From positions 22,840-86,839 of the forward strand of contig JAZSRO010000089.1 in NCBI GenBank assembly GCA_045538515.1: a stretch of 64,000 nt of DNA. The letters are read 5' to 3'. The translations under genes were made by a program, and so were the position numbers. This document shows, piece after piece, positions 54,965 through 64,000 of this stretch. Under the pieces are notes generated by a model, which had not been told where the DNA came from, ran no database searches, and worked only from the letters and a program-made list of their open reading frames with translations. The stretch comes from Acutalibacteraceae bacterium (GTDB lineage: Bacteria > Bacillota > Clostridia > Oscillospirales > Acutalibacteraceae). Each line of letters starts with the position of its first letter. Positions within the stretch are counted from its first letter, which is position 1.

Positions 54965-56185
54965 TTATTTTTTAGGCAAAATATAATGTTGCGGTAAACC
55001 GTTCTTCGTTCGAATTGTTGGCTCACCTTGAATCAGAGGCAAACAGTAATCTATCACATCGCGCGTAACATCGTTGCCTTTCTTATTTATCCACTCGTCA
55101 GGGAAATATTTTACGCGGTTGGCAACAAGGCTTACATCTACAGGCTCTATCTTTATATTGTACGGTTTGTCCGAAACACGCACAAACGCCATCATAACAC
55201 CCGATTTACCCTTAAGTGCCGCCTCGACTGCCGCGCCGCCAACGAGTTCTGCCTCCACGATATCGCGTTTTGATAAAAGGTGTGACGAGCAACGCTGCAT
55301 AACATTGAGTTCTATTGAACGCACCTTGCAACCGACTTCCTTTGTGACAACCTTTTCAAGTGAACGCGCAACACCCGCAAGATATTTATGACCGAAAATA
55401 TCATTTTTGCCCGATTGGAAGTTTTCTTCAACTTCATCGGGGTTGAGTTCTACACCCTCTGAAAGTGCCACAATAACCGATGTGTGCTTTTTCTGCACAC
55501 GCTTTACATCCTCTACAAACTGTTTGCAAGAGAACGGTTTTTCGGGAAGATAAATAAGATGCGGTGCGCTTTCGCCGTTTGCGCGTAAAAGTGCGCTCGA
55601 TGCCGTAAGCCAACCTGTATCTCGTCCCATTATTTCAACAATTGTAACAGAGGGAATGGAATAAACACTGCTGTCACGCGTGATTTCAAACATTGTTGTA
55701 GCAACATATTTTGCCGCCGAGCCAAACCCGGGGGTGTGGTCGGTTTCGGGAAGGTCGTTGTCTATTGTCTTTGGAACACCGATAGCCTTTACATCGATAC
55801 CGTTCGCCTCAAAATAAGCGTGGAGTTTCATAACGGTATCCATCGAATCGTTGCCGCCTATATAGAAAAATGCAGAAATATCGTTTTTCTTCAGGTTTTT
55901 AACAATCTTTTCATAAACCTCGGAATCGGTGTTATAATCGGGAAGTTTATACCTGCAAGAGCCAAGCACCGTTGACGGCGTTTGTCTTATAAGGTCAATA
56001 TCATCATCGGTTTTTATGATGTCTGTAAGGTCTACAAGGTTGCCGTATATAAGCCCCTCTATTCCGTTTACAGAGCCATAAACCTTATCAATCTCCGCAT
56101 ATTTACCCGCCTGTGTAAAAACGCCCAGGAGTGACGAATTTATAGCAACGGTTGGTCCGCCTGACTGTGCAACAACAATGTTCAT
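54965..56185 (-). CDS. pfp: Pyrophosphate-dependent 6-phosphofructokinase (PPi-PFK)
   Basis: PFK fold (SGGPTVAINSS, MGRDTGW). IGGNDS and PKTIDNDL place Asp and Lys at the positions equivalent to E. coli PfkA Gly104 and Gly124, the signature of PPi-dependent enzymes. Confidence 0.8.
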   Translation of the reverse strand: MNIVVAQSGGPTVAINSSLLGVFTQAGKYAEIDKVYGSVNGIEGLIYGNLVDLTDIIKTDDDIDLIRQTPSTVLGSCRYKLPDYNTDSEVYEKIVKNLKKNDISAFFYIGGNDSMDTVMKLHAYFEANGIDVKAIGVPKTIDNDLPETDHTPGFGSAAKYVATTMFEITRDSSVYSIPSVTIVEIMGRDTGWLTASSALLRANGESAPHLIYLPEKPFSCKQFVEDVKRVQKKHTSVIVALSEGVELNPDEVEENFQSGKNDIFGHKYLAGVARSLEKVVTKEVGCKVRSIELNVMQRCSSHLLSKRDIVEAELVGGAAVEAALKGKSGVMMAFVRVSDKPYNIKIEPVDVSLVANRVKYFPDEWINKKGNDVTRDVIDYCLPLIQGEPTIRTKNGLPQHYILPKK

Positions 56186-56306
56186 TAAAAACTCTCCTCA
56201 ATTCTATTTTGTGTTATATCCATTTTACCATAAAACCGCCAAAAAACAAGACACACAGGCAATTTTTGTTAAAAAAGCGGTAAAAAACATTATTTTGAAA
56301 AAAGTG

Positions 56307-56335
56307 TTGACAAAACTTTTCTGTTATGATATATT
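56307..56335 (+). promoter_or_regulatory. Sigma-A-type promoter of the tRNA pair
   Basis: TTGACA (56307-56312), a 17-nt spacer ending in TGa, then TATATT (56330-56335). It lies 17 nt upstream of tRNA-Thr. Confidence 0.6.
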
Positions 56336-56352
56336 TATTTTTGCTGTTAAGC

Positions 56353-56428
56353 GCTGGTGTAGCTCAGTTGGTAGAGCAGCTGATTTGTAATCAGCAGGTC
56401 GGGGGTTCGAGTCCGTCCACCAGCTCCA
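56353..56428 (+). tRNA. tRNA-Thr (anticodon UGU)
   Basis: Acceptor GCTGGTG/CACCAGC, D-arm GCTC-AGTTGGTA-GAGC, anticodon arm GCTGA-TTTGTAA-TCAGC, T-loop TTCGAGT, and an encoded CCA. There is one mismatch in the T-stem. Confidence 0.85.
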
Positions 56429-56468
56429 GTTTTCTAACGAGTTCTAAAACGGACTCACAATTTAATAT

Positions 56469-56554
56469 GGGAGAGTTCCCGAGTGGCCAAAGGGGACAGA
56501 CTGTAAATCTGCTGCGTAATCGCTTCGATGGTTCGAATCCGTCCTCTCCCACCA
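56469..56554 (+). tRNA. tRNA-Tyr (anticodon GUA), class II with a long variable arm
   Basis: Acceptor GGGAGAG/CTCTCCC, anticodon loop CTGTAAA, a long variable arm, T-arm GATGG-TTCGAAT-CCGTC, and an encoded CCA. Confidence 0.9.
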
Positions 56555-56708
56555 AATTAGAAGAGTACCACCGTAAGGTTGGTGCTCTTTTAATTTTTGG
56601 CTGAGGGGACGAGATGAGAACAGGGTGTGCCGTCCGCAGACGGCAAAAACAGTTCGGGGAACTGTTTTTAACCCGCGGTCCTTTAGGCGAATCCGTCCTC
56701 TCCCACCA
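56552..56708 (+). repeat. 157-bp direct repeat, copy R157-a: tRNA terminator + structured segment + pseudo tRNA-Tyr 3' end
   Basis: 156 of 157 nt are identical to 60696-60852. It contains the bulged terminator AAGAGTACCACC-GTAA-GGTTGGTGCTCTT-TTAATTTTT, hairpins GCCGTC-CGCA-GACGGC and AAACAGTTC-GGGG-AACTGTTT, and ends in GGCGAATCCGTCCTCTCCCACCA (the tRNA-Tyr 3' end lacking TT in the T-loop). Confidence 0.9.
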
Positions 56709-56744
56709 AAAAATCGACTTGTGAAAACAAGTCGATTTTTTTAT

Positions 56745-56933
56745 CCATTGCGAAAGCAATGGTATATCATCAACGATAGCGTTGCTATCGTTGTATCTCA
56801 TCAGTCCGTCAGGACTGTATATCATCACGCGTCAGCGTGTAGCAAAAAAACTTTCGCAATGATGATATACAAAACTCCGTTTTGATGATATGCAATTCCT
56901 TTCGGAATAGATGATATACAATGCTTCGCATTG
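56745..56933 (+). repeat. Hairpin-spaced 10-mer array, copy C (TATATCATCA family)
   Basis: Forward 10-mers lie at 56763, 56794 and 56818. Inverted TGATGATATA-type 10-mers lie at 56860, 56883 and 56909. Seven distinct mini-hairpins lie between them, for example CCATTGC-GAAA-GCAATGG, ACGATAGC-GTT-GCTATCGT and ATTCC-TTTC-GGAAT. Confidence 0.8.
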
Positions 56934-57029
56934 ATTTGCTTGTAAATTTATGCTACAATAAATTAAAGGCGGTGATACTGTGCAAAAAAAGGCAAGAAAA
57001 AACTTTTTTTAATTTCTCTGTTCCTTATT

Positions 57030-57584
57030 TTGTTAATACTATTTTATTTAATATTCACCGCAATCAGTATTGTAAATTACGGTAAAAGAGATGAAAAAGC
57101 ATCTTCCGATGTCGCAATCGTTTTAGGTGCGAGTACTTGGAACGGTGAGGTTTCGCCGGTTTATCGCGAAAGGCTCAATCACGGAATTTGGCTCCATCAG
57201 AATGGATATGTTGACTTTTTAATTCTGACCGGTGGTGTTGGAGATGGCAACAATGTTTCCGATGCCTACATTGCAAAACAATACGCAATTTCCAACTCTG
57301 TTCCGGAACAAGCGATTTTTATAGAAGAAAAATCCACAATTACCGAAGAAAATCTCGAAAATGCTAAAGCGATAATGGATGAGAATTCTTTTGATACGGC
57401 AATTATTGTCAGCGACCCACTACATATGAAACGGTCAATGTTAATGGCGGGTGATTATGGTATCAATGCTTGTTCGTCGCCAACACCTACAACAATGTAT
57501 AAGAGCCTTAAGACGCAAATCCCTTTTTTATTGAGGGAAGAGTTTTTCTATATTGGATATTCAATAGTAAGAATTTTCAGATAG
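57030..57584 (+). CDS. DUF218 / YdcF-family protein (N-terminus possibly lost through a T-run frameshift)
   Basis: AIVLGAS...LILTGGVG...IEEKSTITEENL...IIVSDPLHMKRS matches the DUF218 pattern. GTG 56980, preceded by AGGCGGTGA, opens MQKKARKNFF and stops at 57010. One extra T in T7 (57004-57010) would fuse it to this frame. Confidence 0.75.
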   Translation: MLILFYLIFTAISIVNYGKRDEKASSDVAIVLGASTWNGEVSPVYRERLNHGIWLHQNGYVDFLILTGGVGDGNNVSDAYIAKQYAISNSVPEQAIFIEEKSTITEENLENAKAIMDENSFDTAIIVSDPLHMKRSMLMAGDYGINACSSPTPTTMYKSLKTQIPFLLREEFFYIGYSIVRIFR

Positions 57585-57606
57585 GCATAATAATAGTTCG
57601 TAACAG

Positions 57607-57732
57607 CCAAAAAATAGACTTGCTTTTGCAAGTCTATTTTTTTATCCATTGCGAAACTTTGGTATATCATCAGCCGATAGGCTGTATTTCCTTTCGCAAT
57701 AATCATATTACGGCTTTGCCGTGATTTTATTG
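57607..57732 (+). repeat. Terminator hairpin plus truncated 10-mer array, copy D
   Basis: 57607-57672 repeats 56706-56772 (CCAAAAAAT, a GACTTG/CAAGTC hairpin, TTTTTTTATCCATTGCGAAA, GGTATATCATCA). Degenerate inverted units TAATCATATTA and TGATTTTATTG follow, with hairpins GCC-GATA-GGC and CGGC-TTTG-CCG. Confidence 0.75.
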
Positions 57733-57751
57733 TGAGAAAAATATTTCATCA

Positions 57752-58639
57752 TTATTTAATAGCCTCGAACGGATTTTTTTCGTTAATATATTTCTTGAAT
57801 TTTTCCATTGAATCAAAACAGTAAGAATCCTTTTTCCAGACAAGATTTACATCGGCATACATAGGGATTTCTGTGGGAATTGCCACAAATGTTTCATTAG
57901 TCTTTGTCAATTCTCTGAAAGTGAATCCGGCAGCTGTATCGCTTGAGATCATAGTTAACATAGTAGAAAGTTGGTTTGTTTGCAGAATGATATTGGGATT
58001 TATCTTTTCGGCAGCAAACCATTTTTTTATCTTCTCTGTTTGAAAAAAGGTGTTTTCGAACAGAACCAGAGGGGTGCTTTTCAAAAGACGGGGTGTAACT
58101 GATTGATATTTTGCAATTGTGTTATCTTTCGAAGTGCAGCATACGATTTCGAGTTCAGCGACTTTTGTTGACACAAACTTTTTATCAAAAGAATTGTTAT
58201 CAAGCAAAAGCACCATATCCAGATAGTTTTCAGATAGTTTATCTAAAAGTCCGTTATGCCCGTCCTCAACAATTTCAAGTGTAATATCAGGATAAAGCTT
58301 ATAAAAATCACGGTAAATATTCGGAAGTATAAGTGAGGCGATCATGGGCGGAACACCGAGCCTCAGTTTTTTACGCTCATTTCCTAAATCTTTCATAATG
58401 TTCTCCATCTGCTCGGTTCGAGGAATTATTTCCTTGCACATTTCAAACAGCACCTTGCCTTCGGAGGTTAATTCCATACCCTTGTGGTGTCGATTAAAAA
58501 GCACTACACCAAATTCATTTTCCAACGCTTTTATTGCAGATGAAAGAGAAGGCTGTGATATATAAAGATATTCAGATGCATCTGAAAGAGAACCATATAT
58601 ACATATCGCATAAAAATATTTTAACTGGTTTAAATTCAT
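57752..58639 (-). CDS. LysR-family transcriptional regulator
   Basis: MNLNQLKYFYAICIYGSLSDASEYLYISQPSLSSAIKALE HTH. It is divergent from the dehydrogenase gene. Confidence 0.9.
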   Translation of the reverse strand: MNLNQLKYFYAICIYGSLSDASEYLYISQPSLSSAIKALENEFGVVLFNRHHKGMELTSEGKVLFEMCKEIIPRTEQMENIMKDLGNERKKLRLGVPPMIASLILPNIYRDFYKLYPDITLEIVEDGHNGLLDKLSENYLDMVLLLDNNSFDKKFVSTKVAELEIVCCTSKDNTIAKYQSVTPRLLKSTPLVLFENTFFQTEKIKKWFAAEKINPNIILQTNQLSTMLTMISSDTAAGFTFRELTKTNETFVAIPTEIPMYADVNLVWKKDSYCFDSMEKFKKYINEKNPFEAIK

Positions 58640-60695: not shown

Positions 60696-60852
60696 CCAAA
60701 TTAGAAGAGTACCACCGTAAGGTTGGTGCTCTTTTAATTTTTGGCTGAGGGGACGAGATGAGAACAGGGTGTGCCGTCCGCAGACGGCAAAAACAGTTCG
60801 GGGAACTGTTTTTAACCCGTGGTCCTTTAGGCGAATCCGTCCTCTCCCACCA
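60696..60852 (+). repeat. 157-bp direct repeat, copy R157-b
   Basis: It differs from 56552-56708 only at 60820 (T versus C at 56676). It is followed by the hairpin ATCCGACTT-GTTTCGAT-AAGTCGGAT. Confidence 0.9.
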
Positions 60853-60886
60853 GAAAATCCGACTTGTTTCGATAAGTCGGATTTTC

Positions 60887-61057
60887 AGTTATATTCGCCT
60901 TCGGCGAGTTATATTGCTACGCAGTGATGTTCGGCTAAAGCCGAGTGATATTGCCCTTCGGGCAGTTAAGGAGCGAATATAATACCACTGAAACCGCAGG
61001 TTTCAATATCACTTTCGCGTAGCGAAAGTATCACTGTGCCAAGGGCACAATAGCACT
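60887..61057 (+). repeat. Hairpin-spaced 9-mer array, copy E (AGTGATATT family)
   Basis: Forward 9-mers lie at 60887, 60907, 60923 and 60944. Inverted 9-mers lie at 60981, 61005, 61027 and 61049. Spacers are CGCC-TTC-GGCG, CGGC-TAAA-GCCG, GCCC-TTCG-GGC, GAAACC-GCA-GGTTTC, TTCGC-GTA-GCGAA and GTGCC-AAG-GGCAC. Confidence 0.8.
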
Positions 61058-61201
61058 TGAAATGTAATGGTTCGAACATATAGGTCAAAAATTCAAAAGC
61101 CTTCGGTTTTGCCGCCTCCCTTTACACAAGGGAGGCTTTTTATTGCAAAAATCCGAAATATGTGCTATCGTTTTAGTAACATATATTTTGAGGGTGATAT
61201 A

Positions 61202-61804
61202 ATGAAAATTTTTAATTCCACAAAGCATTTGCTGAGTTTTGTTTTTGTTGCATTTTATTTTATATTCAATATTATGCATACATTCATCACATTTTCAAAA
61301 TTCTCCGTTTTGCTTAACAGTATCATAACATTAATTCCGTCAATTCTTATTTTGTGTTATCTATTATTTGGATTTAAAGATTTTAAATCCACAAAACATA
61401 CACTCTCATTAGCATTTGGCATAATTGTTTTTAGAAATTTATATACTGTGACAGTTTCCATCATCGGCACACCCAAATATTTATTATTTGAAAATGACAC
61501 TAAAATTTTATTCGCCTTATCGGTAGTTTTATTGTTGTTTAATATACTGTGTTTTTGCGGGACATTGTTTGAATTTAGATTTTCAATTCTTTTAAAAATC
61601 GGATGCATTGGTTATATATTAACAACCATTATAATTCCAATTTATCAATTCTTTTTGCTAGGCAGAATAAAATATCTAAATTCCATTCCAAAAGAAATGT
61701 TGCCCATAAATATATTCTCTTTCGTAAAATACTTATCTATAATATTTTTTTACTCAGGAATTCTTATTTTATCAACAAATAAGAAAAATACAGATTTGGT
61801 GTGA
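61202..61804 (+). CDS. AT-rich hypothetical multi-pass membrane protein
   Basis: Start at MKIFNSTKHLL, 200 aa, about 6 TM helices. It is visibly much more AT-rich than neighbouring genes. I recognise no motif. Confidence 0.55.
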   Translation: MKIFNSTKHLLSFVFVAFYFIFNIMHTFITFSKFSVLLNSIITLIPSILILCYLLFGFKDFKSTKHTLSLAFGIIVFRNLYTVTVSIIGTPKYLLFENDTKILFALSVVLLLFNILCFCGTLFEFRFSILLKIGCIGYILTTIIIPIYQFFLLGRIKYLNSIPKEMLPINIFSFVKYLSIIFFYSGILILSTNKKNTDLV

Positions 61805-61970: not shown

Positions 61971-64000
61971 ATGAAAACTTTGTTTAGCAAAATTTTATCC
62001 TGTATTTTAGCACTTTCGTTTCTTTTGTCGTTAGGTGCTATCACTGCTTTGGCAGAAACCGATAATAATCTTGACTCCGAAGCAGAAATCCAAGCCGCAA
62101 TTGATGCAATTCCCGTAGGTGGCAAGGGCGAGATTACTATTGAAAACATAAATTTAGGGCTCGCCGGCGGCTTTTATATTGACAGCAAAGATGTAACATT
62201 TAATCTCAAAAATGCACAGATTTCCACAACGGCTGAATGTTGTCCTGTTATTATAGCGCTTGATGCCAATATTACCATCAACGCTGATAATCAATCCTCT
62301 TTAACGACCAACTCTAACACCTTTGGTATGGGTGCAATTCGCCTTGATAACGGACTTTGGGATGATGATGCCAAAAAACATACAAAAACATTCAACCTTA
62401 CCATTAACGGCGGTAAATATTTTTCTCCCGCCGATGATGCTGTTGTTTACGCTACACCGGGAACGACAGTTACTCTAACCGATGTTATGTGTGATGGTAT
62501 TGTTGATGCAATCAATATGGAAACCGTTGGTGTTCCCGAATACGGTAAACTTGTAATTAACGGCGGTAGATTTACAAACGATATAAGAAAATACGCGGCA
62601 GCAGGTAAATTCGCCTGTAATGTAGGGGATTTTTATTATGTTCGTGACAAGGAAACGAGTGACTTATTTGCAAAACTCGTTCCGGGCAACAAAATCACCT
62701 TTGACTATGCACCGCCCAAGTCTATAGAAGATGAAGCACTTTTCTTGCTCGCAGAAACACTTTGGGAACAGAATCCCGAACTCAACTTCAATCCTGAAAG
62801 TTTCTCAAGCGATTTCAAGACCTGTGAAATCGGTATAAATATGGACACTCCGTGGGAAGAAGTTCACGCGGTACAGGTTGTTTGGAACTATGACGAAAAG
62901 GTTCTTCAAACTGCAAAGACCTACATTGACAAATTCCCGACCGACAGAAACTGGTTCGCCGTTTCCGATTTGGAACTTGTAAACTATTTTGCAAACTATA
63001 ACCCCGACGCCGAAACCGATTCGTTTGCCAACTATTCGGGCGAACTTAAAGAGATTTTCAACAACGCAAACTTCACATTAGAGGTTGAAACACGCGGCGG
63101 CGGAGCGGCTCCGTATTTCACCGAAACAATCGGTAGTGCAAAACTTATATATGACGGCAAGGTTTACTTTACCGCCGGTATGCTTGGTGCACGCGGCGAA
63201 CACACGATTTTCGTTCCAAAAGACACCGCCTCTACAAAGGATGCTCTTGCGGCTGCGGCACAAAAGAGAATTGACGATTATCTCGGCAAAGGTAAAATAA
63301 AAATAACTGCAACAGATTATACCGTAACAAAGTTTTATGATGATGAACTTGCAGGATACGATGAAGCACTTGCAGATGCAAGAGCAACTCTCAACGCCGA
63401 AATGGCTAAACCCGAAAACGAAAGAGATATGTTCGTAATTTGGGACTGTCAAGGCATCATTGACCACACGCCCGACTATAAACAGCAGTTTATTGATTCT
63501 TTCAAAGACGGTGGCGACCTCGCTTTCCTCAATAAAGCCGAAGGCGGTTTTATCTTCACAGCAGATGTTGTCGGCAAGGAAGTTGCGTTTGATTTCATTA
63601 TAGTAAAAGATGATACAAAGATGGTTGTTCCCTCCTTTGCTACGGCAGACCTCGAAACAAATGTTTCGGTAACAACCACCTCATCCTCCGTTCCGCTTGA
63701 CACCGTTGCCAAGGTTGAAAAACTGACAGAGGGTACTGATTTTGACCGAATCACAAAAGCACTTGACGGTATGCAGTGTGAGATATTTGACATTAACTTG
63801 CACTCGGCTTCTGCAAATAAAAACATAACAAAACTCGAAGATGGTGAGTTCTATGTTACTCTTCCCATCCCCGATGAATTTGCAAACAAGAATGTTACTG
63901 TTTATTATGTTGACGACAACGGAAAGCCTACGGAGCATCCCCCTGTTTCCATTGATTTACAGAACAAATTTGTAACCTTCACAACCGACCACTTCAGCGT
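61971..64000 (+). CDS. Secreted large surface/cell-envelope protein of unknown function (partial; continues past the window end; absent from the supplied ORF track)
   Basis: AAGGAGG at 61957-61963 precedes ATG 61971. The signal peptide is MKTLFSKILSCILALSFLLSLGAITALA|ETD. I translated the frame by hand and it stays open for all 676 codons to position 64000. A candidate promoter is TTGACT 61907-61912, 17 nt, TATATT 61930-61935. Confidence 0.8.
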   Translation, partial: MKTLFSKILSCILALSFLLSLGAITALAETDNNLDSEAEIQAAIDAIPVGGKGEITIENINLGLAGGFYIDSKDVTFNLKNAQISTTAECCPVIIALDANITINADNQSSLTTNSNTFGMGAIRLDNGLWDDDAKKHTKTFNLTINGGKYFSPADDAVVYATPGTTVTLTDVMCDGIVDAINMETVGVPEYGKLVINGGRFTNDIRKYAAAGKFACNVGDFYYVRDKETSDLFAKLVPGNKITFDYAPPKSIEDEALFLLAETLWEQNPELNFNPESFSSDFKTCEIGINMDTPWEEVHAVQVVWNYDEKVLQTAKTYIDKFPTDRNWFAVSDLELVNYFANYNPDAETDSFANYSGELKEIFNNANFTLEVETRGGGAAPYFTETIGSAKLIYDGKVYFTAGMLGARGEHTIFVPKDTASTKDALAAAAQKRIDDYLGKGKIKITATDYTVTKFYDDELAGYDEALADARATLNAEMAKPENERDMFVIWDCQGIIDHTPDYKQQFIDSFKDGGDLAFLNKAEGGFIFTADVVGKEVAFDFIIVKDDTKMVVPSFATADLETNVSVTTTSSSVPLDTVAKVEKLTEGTDFDRITKALDGMQCEIFDINLHSASANKNITKLEDGEFYVTLPIPDEFANKNVTVYYVDDNGKPTEHPPVSIDLQNKFVTFTTDHFS

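Follow-up and report, generated by a model that had tools for sequence, protein, structure and literature searches.

A Gut-1-related array of mini-hairpins and constant words in front of a DUF218 gene of an Acutalibacteraceae bacterium: an orphan copy of a dispersed cassette head

Repetitive extragenic palindromic sequences and bacterial interspersed mosaic elements (REP/BIME, or REPIN) are intergenic palindromic units in alternating orientation, often found after genes or terminators and thought to act as hairpins of single-stranded DNA (ssDNA). Gut-1 (RF01706) was published as a 77-nt, three-hairpin small RNA (sRNA) candidate from human-gut sequences, with no described partner, and it has been in Rfam since 2010 without context or function (PMC2864571). 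Our literature search found no later functional work on it and no data on its expression. The targets of diversity-generating retroelements (DGRs), which work with the protein Avd, depend on a hairpin or cruciform in the DNA whose loop is strand specific (5'-GRNA) and whose GC-rich stem is variable (PMC3240598). Here, we analyze a module of about 250 bp (56708-56959) in a 64,000-nt stretch, called the window below, of the genome of an Acutalibacteraceae bacterium (contig JAZSRO010000089.1). Its 190-bp core had been flagged in an initial annotation, made from the sequence alone, as a second family of repeat arrays next to a 9-mer family, an observation that is confirmed. The module belongs to a dispersed, conserved type of cassette head related to Gut-1, of which it is an orphan copy; it provides a terminator and a promoter and stands in front of a DUF218 gene.

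The module is composed, in order, of a bidirectional terminator, a hairpin named H1, three forward units, a center, three inverted units, and a sigma-70 promoter. Each forward unit is a hairpin followed by TGTATATCATCA. The constant word of the array family, (T/G)G-(T/C)AT(A/C)TCATCA (10 to 12 nt), is present three times forward and then three times inverted, and each gap between words is a small palindrome. At one mismatch or fewer, the 10-mer has 15 matches in the window versus 4.3 +/- 2.1 in shuffled sequences, with none of 100 shuffles reaching 15, and 6 of the 15 fall within 156 bp in the order +++---. Folded as ssDNA, either strand of 56743-56936 reaches -45 to -46 kcal/mol, compared to about -20 for shuffled sequences (z = -8.0). 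The six 10-mers reported initially were found at 56763, 56794 (as TATCTCATCA), and 56818 and, inverted, at 56860, 56883 (..ATG), and 56909 (AGAT..). All of the seven mini-hairpins listed with them are present, and the terminator hairpin (56714-56735), to their left, is an eighth. The hairpins had been described as unrelated; this holds within one array, but the same modules recur at equal positions in other copies, with compensatory changes. A terminator-type hairpin is found in every copy, its stem differing from copy to copy. The features of the module and its cassette are as follows.

56688-56708, plus strand: pseudo tRNA-Tyr 3' end (…GAATCCGTCCTCTCCCACCA), identical to tRNA-Tyr 56534-56556; it closes the 157-bp repeat R157-a.
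56708-56742, both strands: bidirectional intrinsic terminator with a 9-bp hairpin (A6, stem TCGACTTGT, loop GAAA, stem ACAAGTCGA, T7).
56743-56762, plus strand: ATCC and hairpin H1 (CCATTGC-GAAA-GCAATGG), whose 5' arm and loop can alternatively pair with the center.
56763-56839, plus strand: left half-array, in which the words TATATCATCA, TATCTCATCA, and TATATCATCA alternate with the hairpins ACGATAGC-GTT-GCTATCGT, GTCC-GTCA-GGAC, and CACGC-GTCA-GCGTG.
56840-56861, plus strand: center, an A-rich linker and anti-H1 CTTTCGCAATG (56851-56861), complementary to the H1 5' arm and loop.
56860-56933, minus strand: right half-array, with the inverted words TGATGATATA, TGATGATATG, and AGATGATATA and the hairpins CAAAAC-TCC-GTTTTG, ATTCC-TTTC-GGAAT, and CAATGC-TTC-GCATTG (minus-strand loops GGA, GAAA, and GAA).
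56931-56959, plus strand: outward sigma-70-type promoter by sequence match, TTGATT, 17 nt, (TGC)TACAAT.
57030-57584, plus strand: cargo gene for a DUF218 (PF02698) protein, TTG start.
57596-57609, plus strand: GTTCGTAACAGCCA, a decayed tRNA-like ...CCA end closing the DUF218 cassette; the next terminator follows immediately.
57607-57725, plus strand: truncated copy D, with a terminator (stem with a two-sided change), a decayed H1, one TATATCATCA, hairpin GCC-GATA-GGC, anti-H1 TTTCGCAA, a decayed inverted word TAATCATAT, and hairpin CGGC-TTTG-CCG.

We surveyed the whole genome (2.0 Mb, 116 contigs) and its relatives for further copies, a search that had been proposed from the outset. The genome holds seven copies: the flagged one, the truncated copy D, and those on contigs C111, C116, C42, C76, and C78, the last being a right half only. 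The pattern TATATCATCA-N8-24-YATMTCATCA occurs in 5 of 61 relatives; of 151 genomes sampled across the order, 19 contain it, and the GTDB species genomes contain at least 120 matching loci, of which at least 76 are confirmed loci with arrays in both orientations. Among the matches listed, the array-bearing loci are nearly all in gut or rumen metagenome-assembled genomes labeled Acutalibacteraceae, Oscillospiraceae, Clostridia, or Eubacteriales, +++--- is the most frequent architecture (37 cases), and the -+ order appears once. The first 117 viral-contig matches listed include no real array, which leaves a phage origin unsupported within this set. With these further copies and a matching list of parts, the proposal that the array represents a second subfamily of the 9-mer element type is borne out.

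Across copies, the words are conserved in sequence and the hairpins in structure only. In an alifold alignment of 38 canonical copies, 19 of 43 pairs occur in two or more pair types and 11 in three or more, non-pairs amount to 2.7%, and the H1 pairs show three to four pair types each; the stems covary. Word variants are position specific, units 2 and 3 typically having TATCTCATCA and unit 5 CATATCATCA. Since the spacing between words ranges from 19 to 39 nt, the array is not helically phased. In a zipper model, the forward words would pair with the inverted words, as predicted by the minimum-free-energy fold. This model was set aside, because its pairs never vary and the position variants are uncompensated (TATCTCATCA versus TGATGATATA), which makes the alignment evidence neither for nor against it. 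Likenesses to a DnaA box (TTATCCA), a DnaA-trio, box C/D (UGAUGA), and a HUH nick site (CTTGATA/TTGAT) were dropped as partial, unsupported matches.

The hairpins are not symmetrical with respect to strand. We read 136 distinct hairpins on the strand spelling TATATCATCA, which is plus in the left half and minus in the right half. On this strand, 64 of the 136 loops are GNA (29) or GNNA (35), and the complementary TNC/TNNC loops are absent; the closing pair is C-G in 105 hairpins, and internal G.T pairs outnumber A.C pairs 11:1 (p = 0.006). This bias in loops, closing pairs, and wobbles points to a unit made of a C(GNA)G hairpin plus TGTATATCATCA, whose strand switches between the two halves. 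GNYA accounts for about half of the GNNA loops, triloops are as frequent as tetraloops, and no UNCG loop was seen on the sense strand of the 136 hairpins. The sequences d(GCGNAGC) and d(GCGNNAGC) are described as very stable DNA mini-hairpins (PMC13037366); H1 includes GCGAAAGC, and the last hairpin is GCGAAGC on the minus strand. The loop statistics thus match DNA mini-hairpins better than RNA GNRA/UNCG loops, favoring single-stranded or extruded DNA, with RNA as a less favored alternative. Our literature search turned up no array of such mini-hairpins with a constant linker.

A further pairing had been noticed between TTGCGAAA (56748-56755) and TTTCGCAA (56852-56859). It is confirmed, extends to 11 bp (CATTGCGAAAG/CTTTCGCAATG), and is kept in copy D at 57649-57656 and 57692-57699, as initially stated. 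In 60 distinct pairs of H1 and center, the longest exact complement averages 9.65 nt, versus a mean of 5.62 and a maximum of 6.77 for shuffled partners. At least seven H1 variants come with matching centers, loops included (TTGCGAAAG, AGCCGACAG, AGCCGCAGG, TTACGGAG, AACCGCAG, AGTCGCAGG, and AGCCGAAAGG). By this measure, the helix, about 100 nt in span and in competition with H1, shows true covariation. Its wobble pairs, three favoring the plus strand and four the minus strand, are uninformative on strand choice.

The relation to Gut-1 follows from the 9-mer array, 4 kb away. The RF01706 covariance model matches this array at 60886-60956 on the plus strand, with 50.9 bits against a gathering threshold of 50, and has no match at E <= 1 in 55500-58500. 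Otherwise, Rfam gave only tRNAs and a chance match to BASRCI337 (18 bits versus a gathering threshold of 229), at E <= 1 around the region and at the gathering threshold over the window. The Gut-1 array is built from a terminator, a first hairpin, forward units, a center complementary to the first hairpin plus linker, and inverted units. The claim that both families share one architecture thus stands for the parts, but the polarity is mirrored: the ATATCA strands converge on the center here and diverge in the 9-mer family and in most other classes. Likewise, the proposed core TGATAT/ATATCA is a hexamer common to both words, in opposite order along the element. The flagged array has at least three short hairpins, a constant single-stranded word, and covarying stems, in the style of Gut-1, but this hexamer is all that its word shares with GUGAAAU or its local variant GUGAUAU. 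In most classes, GNA/GNNA loops stand on the coding strand in the half next to the promoter (36 versus 5) and on the other strand in the distal half (3 versus 42), so that the sense strands diverge from the center; the sister class GATTACA and the class GTTATGA, with few hairpins, seem to converge like the TATATCATCA class. Judged from sequence, the flagged array is a sister class of Rfam Gut-1, the two belonging to one superfamily upstream of Avd-like genes.

Two observations concern the Gut-1 arrays themselves. By eye, the Rfam-modeled strand of the arrays at 60886-61057 of the window and on C111 has mostly TTC/TTCG/TTGC loops, and the opposite strand has GAA and GCAA loops with C-G closing pairs. 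Rfam Gut-1 may therefore describe a DNA element or the strand antisense to the functional one. Downstream of the window's Gut-1 array, two open reading frames (ORFs), 61067-61804 (245 aa) and 61971-63998 (>676 aa, running off the window), have no Pfam match at E <= 0.001.

The initial annotation had suggested looking for a host protein that co-occurs with the arrays, such as a REP-associated tyrosine transposase (RAYT) or a helix-turn-helix protein. A co-occurring protein was found; it is neither of these but an Avd-like four-helix-bundle protein, and its gene is missing here. To our knowledge, such proteins form a large family with no known role outside DGRs. Of about 55 genes downstream of arrays, 8 form one Avd-like cluster, starting about 60 nt past the array; these eight copies, all tied to one clade, have the word at least twice forward and at least twice inverted, palindromes, a promoter or ribosome-binding site, and a PF05635 gene. 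The partner protein scores 67 bits with PF05635 and 72.6 bits with TIGR02436 ("four helix bundle protein"). The solved structure nearest to it is PDB 2RLD, an uncharacterized protein with five chains, and PADLOC assigned it to no defense family beyond a marginal match. Of the 63 family members with sufficient flanking sequence, 21 have an outward promoter of the type TTGAYW-N16-18-TAnnnT, and the promoter layout is found in 6 of the 7 copies that precede a cognate Avd-like gene. Behind the Avd-like gene follow small genes of diverse kinds, none of them for a reverse transcriptase (RT).

The pairing of array and protein extends beyond this word. PF05635 genes are present in 71 of the 151 genomes of the order. 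Among 125 Avd-like genes (120 from the survey and the five of this genome), 76 have an array upstream, and about 19 word classes can be told apart among these arrays. The word class changes 20 times on a maximum-likelihood tree of 131 proteins, for 19 classes (minimum, 18), compared to a mean of 53 and a minimum of 48 with shuffled labels. The eight TATATCATCA-linked proteins are compatible with a single clade, the constrained tree scoring better, and in another tree seven of them stand on a long, fully supported stem. Arrays of the family occur in 7 of the 8 genomes that carry this clade (at least 81% identity) versus 12 of the 143 that do not (Fisher p = 1.2e-6); in the eighth, which lacks an array, the gene lies at the start of a contig. 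The five Avd-like genes of our genome each have their own forward-then-inverted array with a different word (GTGATAT, TGAAAT, CGATAT, TTCACTATT, and ATTCATTATT), followed by a TTGATT-type promoter or a ribosome-binding site. None of these five proteins falls in the TATATCATCA clade in the protein tree, and the seven local copies are therefore orphans. In the flagged copy, the array and promoter are present and DUF218 takes the place of the Avd-like gene. The arrays upstream of the five genes lie at C15:1438-1900, C35:19700-20088, C73:53600-53900, C81:48450-48800, and C42:119770-120100; those with the words TTCACTATT and ATTCATTATT seem to have no hairpins between words.

The second constant of the family is its position. 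Among 71 oriented copies with enough upstream sequence, the terminator abuts the 3' end of a same-strand tRNA or transfer-messenger RNA (tmRNA) in 36 (13 kinds), and 7 more have a tRNA or tmRNA 200 to 290 nt upstream, one element away, as in the flagged copy, whose module begins directly after the CCA of the pseudo tRNA-Tyr end. About 80% of the copies begin directly after CCA, which, where there is no tRNA, belongs to a decayed T-arm...CCA remnant. The left junction is CCA followed by an A-run, the right junction is variable, and the whole element is an imperfect inverted repeat. One terminator module recurs behind different tRNAs, which makes the terminator part of the element. In the genus, the site behind tRNA-Tyr has an ordinary terminator and other genes in three genomes (G013, G004, and G009) and a different cassette in a fourth (G001). 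Here, the DUF218 cassette runs from 56709 to 57609, ends in GTTCGTAACAGCCA, and is followed at once by copy D; among the genus genomes compared, only this one has it behind tRNA-Tyr, and the DUF218 gene is absent from 13 of 13 genomes of the same genus. Cassettes stand in tandem at two loci (L005 and L104), and the genes downstream of arrays are diverse. Neighbors of the flagged array include PFK, LysR, Iso_dh, an MBL-fold protein, and two ORFs without family match. No recombinase, HUH enzyme, or RT is present in or next to the cassettes or elsewhere in the window; the genome has nine tyrosine-recombinase matches and one RT match (RVT_1), on other contigs or far from arrays. No target-site duplication was noticed, no systematic search having been made, and no excised form was seen.

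Several side observations concern cassette ends. The 157-bp repeat R157 (56552-56708 and 60696-60852) starts at a tRNA-type CCA and ends in a copy of the tRNA-Tyr 3' end; one copy precedes the flagged array and the other the Gut-1 array. R157 is also present in G001 and G006 (96 to 99%) and in G003 (89% over a longer stretch including R157); in G001, it is separated from tRNA-Tyr by another cassette. The 15-mer AGTTCGTAACAGCCA, which resembles a decayed tRNA T-arm...CCA end and occurs once in this genome, closes two unrelated cassettes, that of DUF218 here (57596-57609) and that of a zinc-ribbon membrane gene in G001 (L265, G001:C16). At three loci with no tRNA in front (L069, L087, and L111), a conserved TTGTTGCTATTTTAAGCTGTAAACAC stands ahead of the next terminator and its A-run; the version at L104 is looser and ends in GTTGTAAACAC. 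Such sequences may mark a further kind of cassette end. By eye, what looks like a transposase-type gene stands at the tRNA-Tyr site in place of arrays at L271 (G009:C19), another sign that the tRNA-Tyr end is an insertion hotspot. Within the flagged cassette (56966-57035), a strong ribosome-binding site (AAAGGCGGTGA) and a GTG at 56980 open a frame that stops after 10 codons. This frame differs from that of DUF218, with A7, A6, and T7 runs between them, and the break possibly reflects a homopolymer frameshift, an assembly error, or a short leader peptide.

As the best explanation of these features, we tentatively propose that the array is a docking array for a class-specific Avd-like oligomer on unwound DNA. 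The word would be the predicted recognition site of the oligomer, read on the 5'-TATATCATCA-3' strand once the palindromes extrude as C(GNA)G / C(GNNA)G mini-hairpins in locally unwound DNA, and the hairpins would serve as sequence-free spacers that hold the words exposed. The DGR target hairpin offers, by analogy, a precedent for an Avd-family protein that depends on a DNA hairpin. The array abuts the -35 element, half of which is contained in the last hairpin (3' arm), so that the outward promoter would be tuned by occupancy or extrusion, leading to autoregulation in complete units. The array may also insulate this promoter from the strongly transcribed tRNA upstream. In our genome, it would be at most a passive terminator and promoter; alternatively, the copy may be read by a related protein of the ATATCAC class (C42:119468-119770). 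A number of facts weigh against this proposal. Twelve of the 19 array-bearing genomes have no cognate protein, and arrays are similarly intact without and with it (canonical in 6 of 17 versus 14 of 25; p = 0.22), the trend to decay in genomes without the cognate gene being weak and nonsignificant, which weakens a strict dependence on the protein. The match between clade and word class may partly reflect linkage of the gene with its upstream DNA. Polarity varies by class, the sense strands converging here and diverging in most others. In some other classes, the array abuts the ribosome-binding site and must therefore be transcribed. Finally, the 11-bp pairing of H1 and center over about 100 nt would be hard to reach by local extrusion from duplex and points to a fully single-stranded molecule, RNA or ssDNA.

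These last two points lead to structured RNA, a possible but less probable account in which the array, or one half of it, would be an sRNA, a tRNA trailer, or a leader whose hairpins display the word to an RNA-binding protein. Because Avd binds RNA in DGRs, this reader could be the same Avd-like protein. Strong stem covariation and a long-range helix are typical of RNA domains, the G.U-compatible mismatches are confined to one strand, and the left terminator is bidirectional. The classes ATATCGA, ATATCGC, and TATTTCAT have their proximal half only 32 to 49 nt before the Pfam match, hence in the 5' untranslated region, where it is GNA-sense. The sister motif is, moreover, classed as an sRNA by Rfam (PMC2864571), but the flagged region has no Rfam match at E <= 1. 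Its halves are in sense on opposite, converging strands, so that no single transcript would hold both in sense; the recognizable promoter, situated downstream, is directed away from the array, and a terminator separates the tRNA from the array. The loops also fit RNA poorly, GNA triloops and GNYA being as frequent as GNRA and UNCG missing from the sense strand. An ordinary double-stranded operator array for a conventional transcription factor, with irrelevant palindromes, would explain the direct and inverted words immediately upstream of the -35 element. We regard it as highly improbable in view of the compensated palindrome in every spacer, the loop bias of 64 versus 0 with its C-G closing pair, the spacing of 19 to 39 bp, and the covarying long-range complement.

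The position of the copies raises another option, that the array is the end of a mobile cassette inserted at the CCA of tRNA or tmRNA genes or of their decayed copies; the array, folded as ssDNA, would be a recombination or docking site resembling attC or attP arms, and the Avd-like protein a class-specific accessory factor of an enzyme acting in trans. We consider this unlikely as a whole. The 36 of 71 copies that abut a tRNA or tmRNA, with 7 more one element away and about 80% after CCA, speak for it, as do the same terminator module behind different tRNAs, the tRNA-Tyr site that is empty in three genomes and holds differing cassettes in G001 and here, the tandem cassettes with their diverse cargo, the strand-specific, DNA-like loop design, and the patchy distribution across families. 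Yet neither the cassettes, their flanks, nor the rest of the window contain a recombinase, HUH enzyme, or RT; the listed viral-contig matches hold no real copy, no excised form was seen, a target-site duplication was not noticed (again with no systematic search), and homologous recombination between repeats would explain the variation between relatives equally well. Similarly doubtful is that Gut-1-type arrays are the cis sites of an integron-like capture platform without integron integrase, which would insert small promoter-bearing cassettes at any tRNA or tmRNA CCA and be read as ssDNA mini-hairpins by class-specific Avd-like proteins. Very unlikely, in our opinion, is a selfish repeat of the REP/BIME or miniature inverted-repeat transposable element type, with no host function, a transposase in trans, and an incidental terminator and promoter. 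The multicopy, intergenic, palindromic arrays, their truncated or decayed copies (D, C78, and C116), and their persistence without an Avd-like gene would suit such a repeat. They contrast with an architecture that is kept across families, with position-specific words and compensated stems, with the tie to one protein clade, and with the low copy number (seven); there is no GTAG-type REP signature, and the only Y1/RAYT-type gene (PF01797) is on a 1.6-kb contig without arrays.

Our literature search found no description of the element class, of its tRNA-end grammar, or of its class-matched Avd-like partners, and the nearest known systems each share a part of it. The array hairpins resemble stable DNA mini-hairpins in their C-G closing pair, their GNA/GNNA loops, and several literal motif matches (GCGAAGC, and GCGAAAGC in H1), but the latter are a physicochemical motif and not a genetic element. 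With REP/BIME elements, the flagged arrays have in common that they are intergenic palindromic units in alternating orientation. They differ in that the hairpins vary and the linker is constant, the reverse of REPs, in their low copy number, and in having their own terminator and promoter. A conserved hairpin with a 5' GTAG-type tetranucleotide was not found, as the stems differ within and between copies and the linker is what is conserved. A link to RAYT/IS200 was rejected too, the single PF01797 gene (contig C7, 1620 bp) having no arrays around it.

DGR targets likewise combine a sequence-free GC-rich stem with a constrained, strand-specific loop in an Avd-containing system (PMC3240598). The arrays here, in contrast, have six to eight hairpins with 4- to 9-bp stems and tri- or tetraloops and a constant word between them. 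Membership in a DGR was discarded, since no RT is found beside arrays and the sole RVT_1 match is on another contig (no search for template and variable repeats was made). Integrons and tRNA-associated islands are comparable in their small promoter-dependent cassettes with diverse cargo, stacked at one site. The boundary element resembles attC in its imperfect inverted repeat and its single-strand features, which are strand specific, and, as in tRNA-integrating islands, copies of tRNA 3' ends mark the cassette ends. Unlike attC, the array has no adjacent integrase and no R/L core boxes and is placed at the promoter-proximal (5') end of the cassette. Unlike in tRNA-integrating islands, the target is any tRNA-type CCA end (13 tRNA kinds and tmRNA), not one specific tRNA. 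Membership among integron cassettes or attC sites was dismissed, with no recombinase among the neighbors and the array at the 5', not the 3', cassette end. If the cassettes are indeed mobile, they would represent a new bacterial way to stack accessory genes behind tRNA genes.

The closest relative is Gut-1, with which the array shares the series of short covarying hairpins, the constant short word, the origin in gut Clostridia, and the position of both classes upstream of Avd-like genes. It differs by its word of 10 to 12 nt (TGTATATCATCA) instead of GUGAAAU, by its mirrored polarity, and by loop statistics that favor the strand opposite to that of Rfam, which question whether Gut-1 is an RNA at all. 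The catalogued Gut-1 would thus be one of about 19 word classes of a larger family missed by the Rfam model, whose grammar is a tRNA-type CCA end, a terminator, an array, a promoter, and a gene, and in which each word class appears to pair with its own Avd-like clade, making the matching of word and protein testable.

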